Shown here: positions 61,669 to 61,850 of the stretch, in pieces
Numbering within the stretch: the stretch's first letter is position 1
Layout: every line of letters starts with the position of its first letter
Assembly (NCBI RefSeq): GCF_036516095.1
Contig: NZ_DATBUM010000017.1
Coordinates: forward strand, 2,520 to 66,519
Source: Fusobacterium sp.
GTDB lineage: Bacteria > Fusobacteriota > Fusobacteriia > Fusobacteriales > Fusobacteriaceae
Direction: 5' to 3'
Length of the DNA stretch: 64,000 nucleotides
The notes under the pieces: generated by a model
What the model saw: only the letters and a program-made list of their open reading frames with translations
Told to the model about the DNA's origin: nothing
The model's database searches: none
Program-made: the position numbers and the translations under genes

Positions 61669-61740
61669 ATGAAACAAAAAAATCAAAAAAATTGTCAAAA
61701 TCATTTTGCGAACTTTTTCTACTATTATTATATGAATTAG
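61669..61740 (+). CDS. Tyr/Phe-rich attenuator leader peptide, 23 aa (MKQKNQKNCQNHFANFFYYYYMN)
   Basis: Strong RBS AAGGAGG (61655-61); ATG 61669; codons TTT-GCG-AAC-TTT-TTC-TAC-TAT-TAT-TAT; TAG at 61738-40; too short for the ORF track. Confidence 0.88.
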   Translation: MKQKNQKNCQNHFANFFYYYYMN

Positions 61741-61850
61741 AGAGTCACACAAAAAGTTAGTGGCTCTATTTGCATTGTCAAGGAGCCTCTAATGATAGTA
61801 AAGATTAATGGGCTTCTTGCAATGTGAACTTGTAAGAAGCTTTTTTATTT
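61741..61850 (+). promoter_or_regulatory. Attenuator RNA: alternative hairpins, antiterminator and terminator
   Basis: 61741-48/61760-67 hairpin; 61762-72/61779-87 hairpin; antiterminator 61769-88/61810-28; terminator 61812-22/61830-40 followed by TTTTTTATTTTT. Confidence 0.85.

Follow-up and report, generated by a model that had tools for sequence, protein, structure and literature searches.

The roughly 200-nt leader of an NhaC-family membrane transporter gene in Fusobacterium sp. is very likely a ribosome-mediated (leader-peptide) transcription attenuator, which would sense the supply of Tyr-tRNA(Tyr) and control what is probably a tyrosine transporter. The leader lies within a 64,000-nt stretch of contig NZ_DATBUM010000017.1 (assembly GCF_036516095.1), referred to below as the window; coordinates are those of the window. 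Five segments of the leader RNA, B to F, can form two mutually exclusive helix sets: B:C plus D:E, in which D:E is the putative antiterminator, or C:D plus E:F, in which E:F is an intrinsic terminator. These four helices recur in about 30 homologues. The element is best filed as an ordinary mechanism in a new Tyr-specific family of classical leader-peptide attenuators, a family with two alternative target genes. A literature search for a Fusobacterium or Tyr leader-peptide attenuator found no description of one.

The whole element is encoded on the plus strand, behind a promoter-like site recovered by a consensus scan (61610..61638; TTGACT-17 nt-TAGAAT with TG before the -10 hexamer; 10 of 12 matches), which would place the start of transcription near 61645. 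The Shine-Dalgarno sequence AAGGAGG (61654..61660) can be read 8 nt before the AUG (61669) of a leader ORF that comprises 23 codons in the ORF list (61669..61740; MKQKNQKNCQNHFANFFYYYYMN*). Four consecutive Tyr codons, UAC UAU UAU UAU (61720-61731), are followed by two further codons and the UAG stop (61738-61740). The regulated gene (61910..63298, plus strand) encodes a 462-aa NhaC-family membrane protein (PF03553, TIGR00931) that is 93-94% identical to the F. necrophorum transporter; judged by its regulation, it is a probable tyrosine transporter.

Between the leader and a pyruvate:ferredoxin oxidoreductase gene, the window carries an HTH regulator (minus strand) and an NSS/SNF-family sodium-dependent transporter (59121-61574), the latter of which might transport amino acids. 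In F. necrophorum KG35 (L086) the leader is located directly 3' of the oxidoreductase gene, so the two loci differ by an insertion or deletion of the HTH/NSS pair; the NSS transporter upstream is not part of any conserved synteny.

Segment B, AGAGUCAC (61741..61748), begins at the first nucleotide after the stop codon and pairs over 8 bp with GUGGCUCU (61760-67), which is the 3' part of segment C (UUAG-U-GGCUCU, 61756..61767), in a hairpin of -10.4 kcal/mol. The partner of C is either B or, over its full length (61756-67), segment D (61769..61794). In this second helix, the putative anti-antiterminator, GGCUCU..UUG pairs with CAAGGAGCC, and the duplex is extended by UUAG (61756-59) with CUAA (61789-92); the D core plus CUAA (61782-93) is engaged, and the hairpin has an energy of -13.4 kcal/mol. 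Segment E (61810..61828) consists of the 5' arm of the terminator (61810-22) plus its loop and has D or F as its partner. Pairing of E with the 5' part of D, UUUGCAUUG (61769-77), and with its core, CAAGGAGCCU (61779-88), yields an antiterminator of 19 bp with one bulge (61769-88 with 61810-28; -23.7 kcal/mol; z = -6.7 against shuffled E in the window). Segment F and the U-tract together span 61830..61852, with the 3' arm of the terminator at 61830-42 and the U-tract at 61841-52. The terminator itself (61810-22 with 61830-42) has 13 bp and an energy of -15.2 kcal/mol and is followed by UUUUUUAUUUUUAUUU; a terminator scan returns the same 13 pairs and T-run, and this is the only terminator-like site in 61400-62000 (shuffle mean 0.3). 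All four helices had been listed in the earlier note, a reading of the sequence made ahead of our analysis, and each was recovered at its listed position when the pairings were recomputed. Taken as a whole, the 221-nt leader folds with z = -3.65 relative to dinucleotide shuffles, and not one of 200 shuffles matched its stability.

These pairings suggest how the switch would operate. With Tyr-tRNA scarce, the ribosome would stall with an early Tyr codon in its A site and its footprint would end before B; B would hold C, D would stay free and capture E as it emerges, and with D:E formed there would be no terminator hairpin, allowing RNA polymerase to read into the transporter gene. With Tyr-tRNA plentiful, the ribosome would reach the stop codon and cover B, C would pair with D, E would be left for F, and transcription would end at the U-tract. 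The geometry of the leader is suited to this scheme, as B starts where the stop codon ends and the Tyr codons precede the stop by 9-18 nt.

The position of the ribosome was represented in equilibrium folds of the RNA, taken to the end of F, by barring nucleotides from pairing as far as 10 or 13 nt beyond the first base of the codon in the A site. In the window, the predicted probability of the terminator was 0.01 for a stall on the first Tyr codon, 0.01-0.07 for a stall on the last (0.07 with the wide footprint) and 0.91 for a ribosome at the stop codon. The predicted switch fits the energies of the two helix sets: B:C plus D:E is favored when B is free (-34.1 vs. about -28.5 kcal/mol for C:D plus E:F), and the terminator side is favored when B is masked (D:E alone, -23.7 vs. 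about -28.3 kcal/mol). The same switch is predicted for the F. necrophorum (L086) and F. nucleatum (L085) leaders, and in part for the same-genus relative L098; the folding path of the window RNA also agrees with it. The core logic put forward in the earlier note, for which constrained RNA folding had been suggested as a check, is supported by masked folding of these leaders, by the geometry of the element and by the co-evolution of its helices.

For most of the other homologues, the terminator is the predicted equilibrium outcome whatever the ribosome state, so the switch in these copies must rest on kinetics, or else the energy model is too coarse. Even in the window, D:E beats C:D at equilibrium in RNA that ends before F, also with B masked. 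A purely thermodynamic decision taken ahead of the terminator was therefore rejected, as folding before F fails to distinguish the ribosome states of the window leader, and termination at the stop codon would require either the timely arrival of F or a kinetic trap that holds C:D. We infer that timing contributes to the outcome, through the co-transcriptional order of events, a preformed C:D and the arrival of F.

Homologues were collected by a pattern scan of three invariant blocks and by covariance models (R1 and R2) from 194 Fusobacteriota genomes and about 800 Clostridia genomes, yielding about 30 distinct copies from Fusobacteriota and Clostridia (alignment A5). Among the Fusobacteriota, 19 of the 194 genomes have the element, with one copy per genome (20 matches at E<=0.001, one of which, L114, adjoins tRNA genes and was found to be spurious when read in sequence). 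More copies are present in [Eubacterium] infirmum, Peptostreptococcus stomatis, Oceanivirga and several MAGs. Two other model matches had about 36-38 bits; L121 proved spurious when its sequence was read, and L128 was dropped on score. The same NhaC orthologue is located downstream of 26 copies, and a scan of 80 NhaC orthologue upstream regions found Tyr-run leaders ahead of the closest ten only.

The peptide-coding features are kept throughout the family. A Shine-Dalgarno site of the AAGGAG type, a leader AUG and 3-6 Tyr codons near the C-terminus of the peptide occur in 30 of 30 copies, and in all 30 the stop codon lies within UUAGAG or UUAAAG and abuts B; 28 of them place the last Tyr codon 9 nt ahead of this stop. 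In the alignment of the Tyr codons, positions 1 and 2 (TA) are invariant and position 3 varies between U and C, indicating that selection acts on the codon and not on the RNA sequence. Another shared feature of the leader peptides, a few codons ahead of the Tyr run, is a His-Phe (or Ile-Phe) pair (RNA CAUUUUG; 61700-61707 in the window), which is kept despite divergent N-terminal parts, in copies linked to NhaC and to tyrS alike.

The conserved blocks UUAGAGAGUC, GGCUC and GAGCCUCUAAU could in principle serve to bind a protein, a tRNA or some small molecule, making the element a riboswitch or a protein-dependent antiterminator and the small ORF incidental. The blocks are indeed unusually invariant across phyla, given that the regulated proteins are only 62-77% identical, and C:D is without covariation. 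The invariance, however, is sufficiently explained by the two or three alternative helices in which each block is engaged, and every one of the 30 copies, those ahead of tyrS included, retains the ORF, the Shine-Dalgarno site, the wobbling Tyr run and a stop codon placed against B. Nor does any Rfam family match, T-box included: none of the Rfam leader families, His_leader among them, reaches its threshold in the region or in the homologues, and T-box RF00230 (stem I specifier loop, antiterminator sequence) has no match in the leader region. The best Rfam match, PyrG_leader (28 bits vs. a cut-off of 65 bits), aligns to the terminator only and was discarded. We consider a binding site very improbable.

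Co-evolution of the helices, another check suggested in the earlier note, was assessed from duplex energies, with each segment paired either to its own partner or to partners permuted among 12 clade representatives (20000 permutations). Because the representatives are phylogenetically non-independent, the permutation counts are indicative and are not probabilities; on this footing, B:C (cognate -12.2 vs. permuted -10.9 kcal/mol; 5 of 20000 permutations as low), D:E (-18.1 vs. -14.8 kcal/mol; 3 of 20000; z from -2.9 to -9.3 across the 12 clades) and E:F (-15.8 vs. -11.4 kcal/mol; 0 of 20000) all support their pairings. C:D gave no covariation signal among the 12 representatives (-14.2 kcal/mol both cognate and permuted), since the GAGCCUCUAAU block of D does not vary across the 15 sequences of alignment A2 and C hardly does; the C:D helix is stable in every member of the family.

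Column counts were made on alignments A2 and A5. Five pairs of the terminator E:F show changes on both sides, and 97.5% of cells in the B:C columns are paired, with one covarying pair (CG 12, UA 12, UG 6). For B:C plus D:E together, 82% of cells are paired, vs. 36-57% when the partners are slid. In the F. nucleatum group the register of D:E is shifted by indels, so that column-wise D:E covariation was blurred in both MAFFT and model-fitted alignments; it was replaced by the per-sequence duplex energies.

The loop of the terminator, which is otherwise unconstrained, stays complementary to the 5' part of D, and the sequences involved differ by clade: UUUGCAUUG with CAAUGUGAA in the window, UUGUA with UACAA in the F. 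nucleatum group, UUUGCAUUGU with ACGAUGCAAA in the E. infirmum group, and UUUGCAU with AUGCAAA in Oceanivirga. As sequence evidence, this complementarity is the strongest point for the putative antiterminator. In the copies linked to tyrS the antiterminator has only about 8 bp (-12 kcal/mol vs. -22 kcal/mol for the terminator).

Those copies, four in number and more divergent (60-71 bits with R1), precede tyrS (TIGR00234, 433-440 bits) at L115 701-849, L117 298-450, L118 1501-1651 and L120 1408-1554 (minus strand), and their leader peptides end in ...FGYVYYY(Y)K[SI]*. The tyrS behind the attenuator is the only tyrS in the four Peptostreptococcus-like genomes, each of which has 15-18 T-boxes elsewhere; the leader peptide thus stands where Firmicutes usually have a tyrS T-box. 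A promoter-like sequence, TTGTAT...TGTATAAT, occurs between the attenuator terminator and tyrS at about 470-500 in L117 and at the same position in L115, L118 and L120, and could be a second, unregulated promoter for basal tyrS expression.

Tyr T-boxes, for their part, are located directly upstream of NhaC orthologues (50-54% identity) in the Bacillaceae Cytobacillus, Perspicuibacillus and Viridibacillus (L064 1222-1412, L071 1063-1237 and L073 1265-1448; specifier UAC then A; E about 1e-15). At the Rfam gathering cut-off no T-box was found before NhaC orthologues, and these three came from a later E-value search; the default scan misses them because their 77-78 bits are below the 93-bit gathering cut-off. 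Control of NhaC-family transporters by Tyr T-boxes was described for several Firmicutes by Wels et al. 2008 (PMC2494555). A search of the whole window genome found no T-box leaders, and the tyrS of that genome (L130 1350-1500) has a short promoter region only, with no leader ORF and no terminator. The leader peptide, the T-boxes and the linkage to tyrS agree on Tyr-tRNA charging as the signal.

The logic could also be the inverse, with stalling favoring termination and the gene switched on at tyrosine surplus, as might suit an exporter or a catabolic uptake system. Fusobacteria ferment amino acids, the substrates of the NhaC family are diverse, and the protein in the window is uncharacterised, all of which would leave room for such a role. 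We nevertheless see hardly any likelihood in it: given the helix topology, a stall leads to read-through; tyrS, for which demand rises with poor charging, is controlled by the same element; and orthologues of the transporter are under Tyr-specifier T-boxes, which induce on uncharged tRNA (PMC2494555). Induction by a shortage of Tyr-tRNA(Tyr) is the reading that we retain.

The leader in its untranslated state is a point on which our results depart from the earlier note. Its three-state, his-type model held that untranslated Tyr codons pair with 61790-800 and lock D in a closed domain, giving default termination (super-attenuation). The complementarity on which this third arm was built is real in the window sequence, where Tyr codons 61720-30 and the linker UAAUGAUAGUA (61790..61800, plus strand) form a perfect 11-bp duplex (A-U pairs only; -8.5 to -10.1 kcal/mol; z = -3.2). 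The same-genus relative L098 retains the duplex, and in the unmasked folding path it is transiently the MFE state, at the point where the untranslated transcript extends to 61809 and E is about to be made. The linker is lineage-specific, however, and the duplex is weak or missing in F. necrophorum and the F. nucleatum group, in Oceanivirga, in the Clostridia copies and in those ahead of tyrS; across the family, its cognate and permuted energies are equal (6458 of 20000). It would also have to close a multiloop of roughly 59 nt with A-U pairs alone. Once E is present, moreover, 99% of the untranslated window RNA is predicted to adopt the antiterminator, with a terminator probability of 0.00. 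With the helix confined to the window and one relative and the unmasked RNA predicted to be antiterminated, the third arm is not supported, and we judge the three-state model unlikely.

The same sensor might instead read through by default, with B:C and D:E kept in the untranslated leader and termination imposed only by a ribosome at the stop codon; we find this quite possible, if short of an even chance. Without a ribosome, the window, L086 and L085 have predicted terminator probabilities of 0.00-0.20 at equilibrium, and no conserved upstream partner was found for B or for the Tyr codons. Against it, termination is the prediction for most homologues irrespective of the state, and a pairing absent from the earlier list fits a structure that holds D without a ribosome. 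In this pairing, the stop-codon region AAUUAGAG (61735-42), which includes the last sense codon and the stop, joins CUCUAAU(G) (61787-94) at the 3' end of D. The helix of AAUUAGAG with CUCUAAU has -7.5 to -10 kcal/mol in all NhaC-type copies, and the divergent copy L119 has a compensating insertion for it (248 of 20000). It might hold D without a ribosome on the stop codon and so favor termination; under default read-through, the conserved pairing would be incidental, or active only after ribosome release. The attenuator reading favored here, in which a Tyr stall leads to read-through and arrival at the stop codon to termination, concerns the translated leader.

Among known systems, the his leader (hisL of Salmonella and E. 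coli, Rfam His_leader) is alike in having a leader peptide with a run of cognate codons and a relay with at least five segments; a stall leads to B:C and D:E (read-through), and a ribosome at the leader end to C:D and E:F (termination). The two have no sequence or covariance-model similarity. The his leader responds to His and serves a biosynthetic operon in Proteobacteria, whereas the element described here responds to Tyr and precedes a transporter or tyrS in Fusobacteriota and Clostridia. In the his leader the codon run forms an A:B helix; the element described here has no conserved A:B helix, and none appears in the unmasked folds. The description of the element as his-like in the earlier note therefore holds for the topology of the relay and not for the A:B helix that defines the his system.

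In the trp attenuator (trpL), the choice also depends on ribosome position, and the 5' arm of the terminator is likewise shared by antiterminator and terminator. There, stalling covers segment 1 and so releases segment 2 directly for the antiterminator (three helices), whereas the relay described here (B:C, C:D, D:E, E:F) has one extra inversion step. The closest parallel to the tyrS-linked Peptostreptococcus copies is the pheM-pheST leader-peptide attenuator of E. coli, in which codons for the enzyme's own amino acid also control an aminoacyl-tRNA synthetase; it differs in its amino acid (Phe), its unrelated sequence and its Gram-negative host, and the target in the window is a transporter. 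The Tyr T-boxes of Firmicutes (PMC2494555) share the signal, the antitermination output and the same two target genes, tyrS and NhaC. A T-box, however, binds uncharged tRNA directly and needs no translation, and the element described here is without T-box features. Leader-peptide attenuator and T-box thus form a natural case of two devices solving one problem for the same two genes.

For the Fusobacterium gene annotated as 'Na+/H+ antiporter NhaC', the element provides a candidate mechanism and a functional label, probable tyrosine uptake, in a genus of medical interest and in a genome where T-boxes are absent. The combination of ribosome-sensing leaders, Tyr T-boxes on orthologues and leaders ahead of tyrS would place this label among the better regulation-based annotations in the NhaC family. 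The element is absent from Rfam 15 and would give a clean new family, with about 30 seed sequences.

More speculatively, and with more doubt than confidence on our part, the Tyr leader, relay and terminator may constitute a self-contained module that has moved together with the transporter between phyla of oral and gut anaerobes (Fusobacteriota, Peptostreptococcus and relatives of [Eubacterium] infirmum). On this tentative view, the Peptostreptococcus copy would have been recruited to the sole tyrS, in the place usually held by a T-box, and the ribosome-free state may be read-through, unlike in trp and his. The distance from the attenuator to the regulated gene varies among the copies: in L112 and L127, NhaC starts about 226-229 nt after the attenuator, vs. 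13-62 nt in the others, and the longer gap may hold something else.
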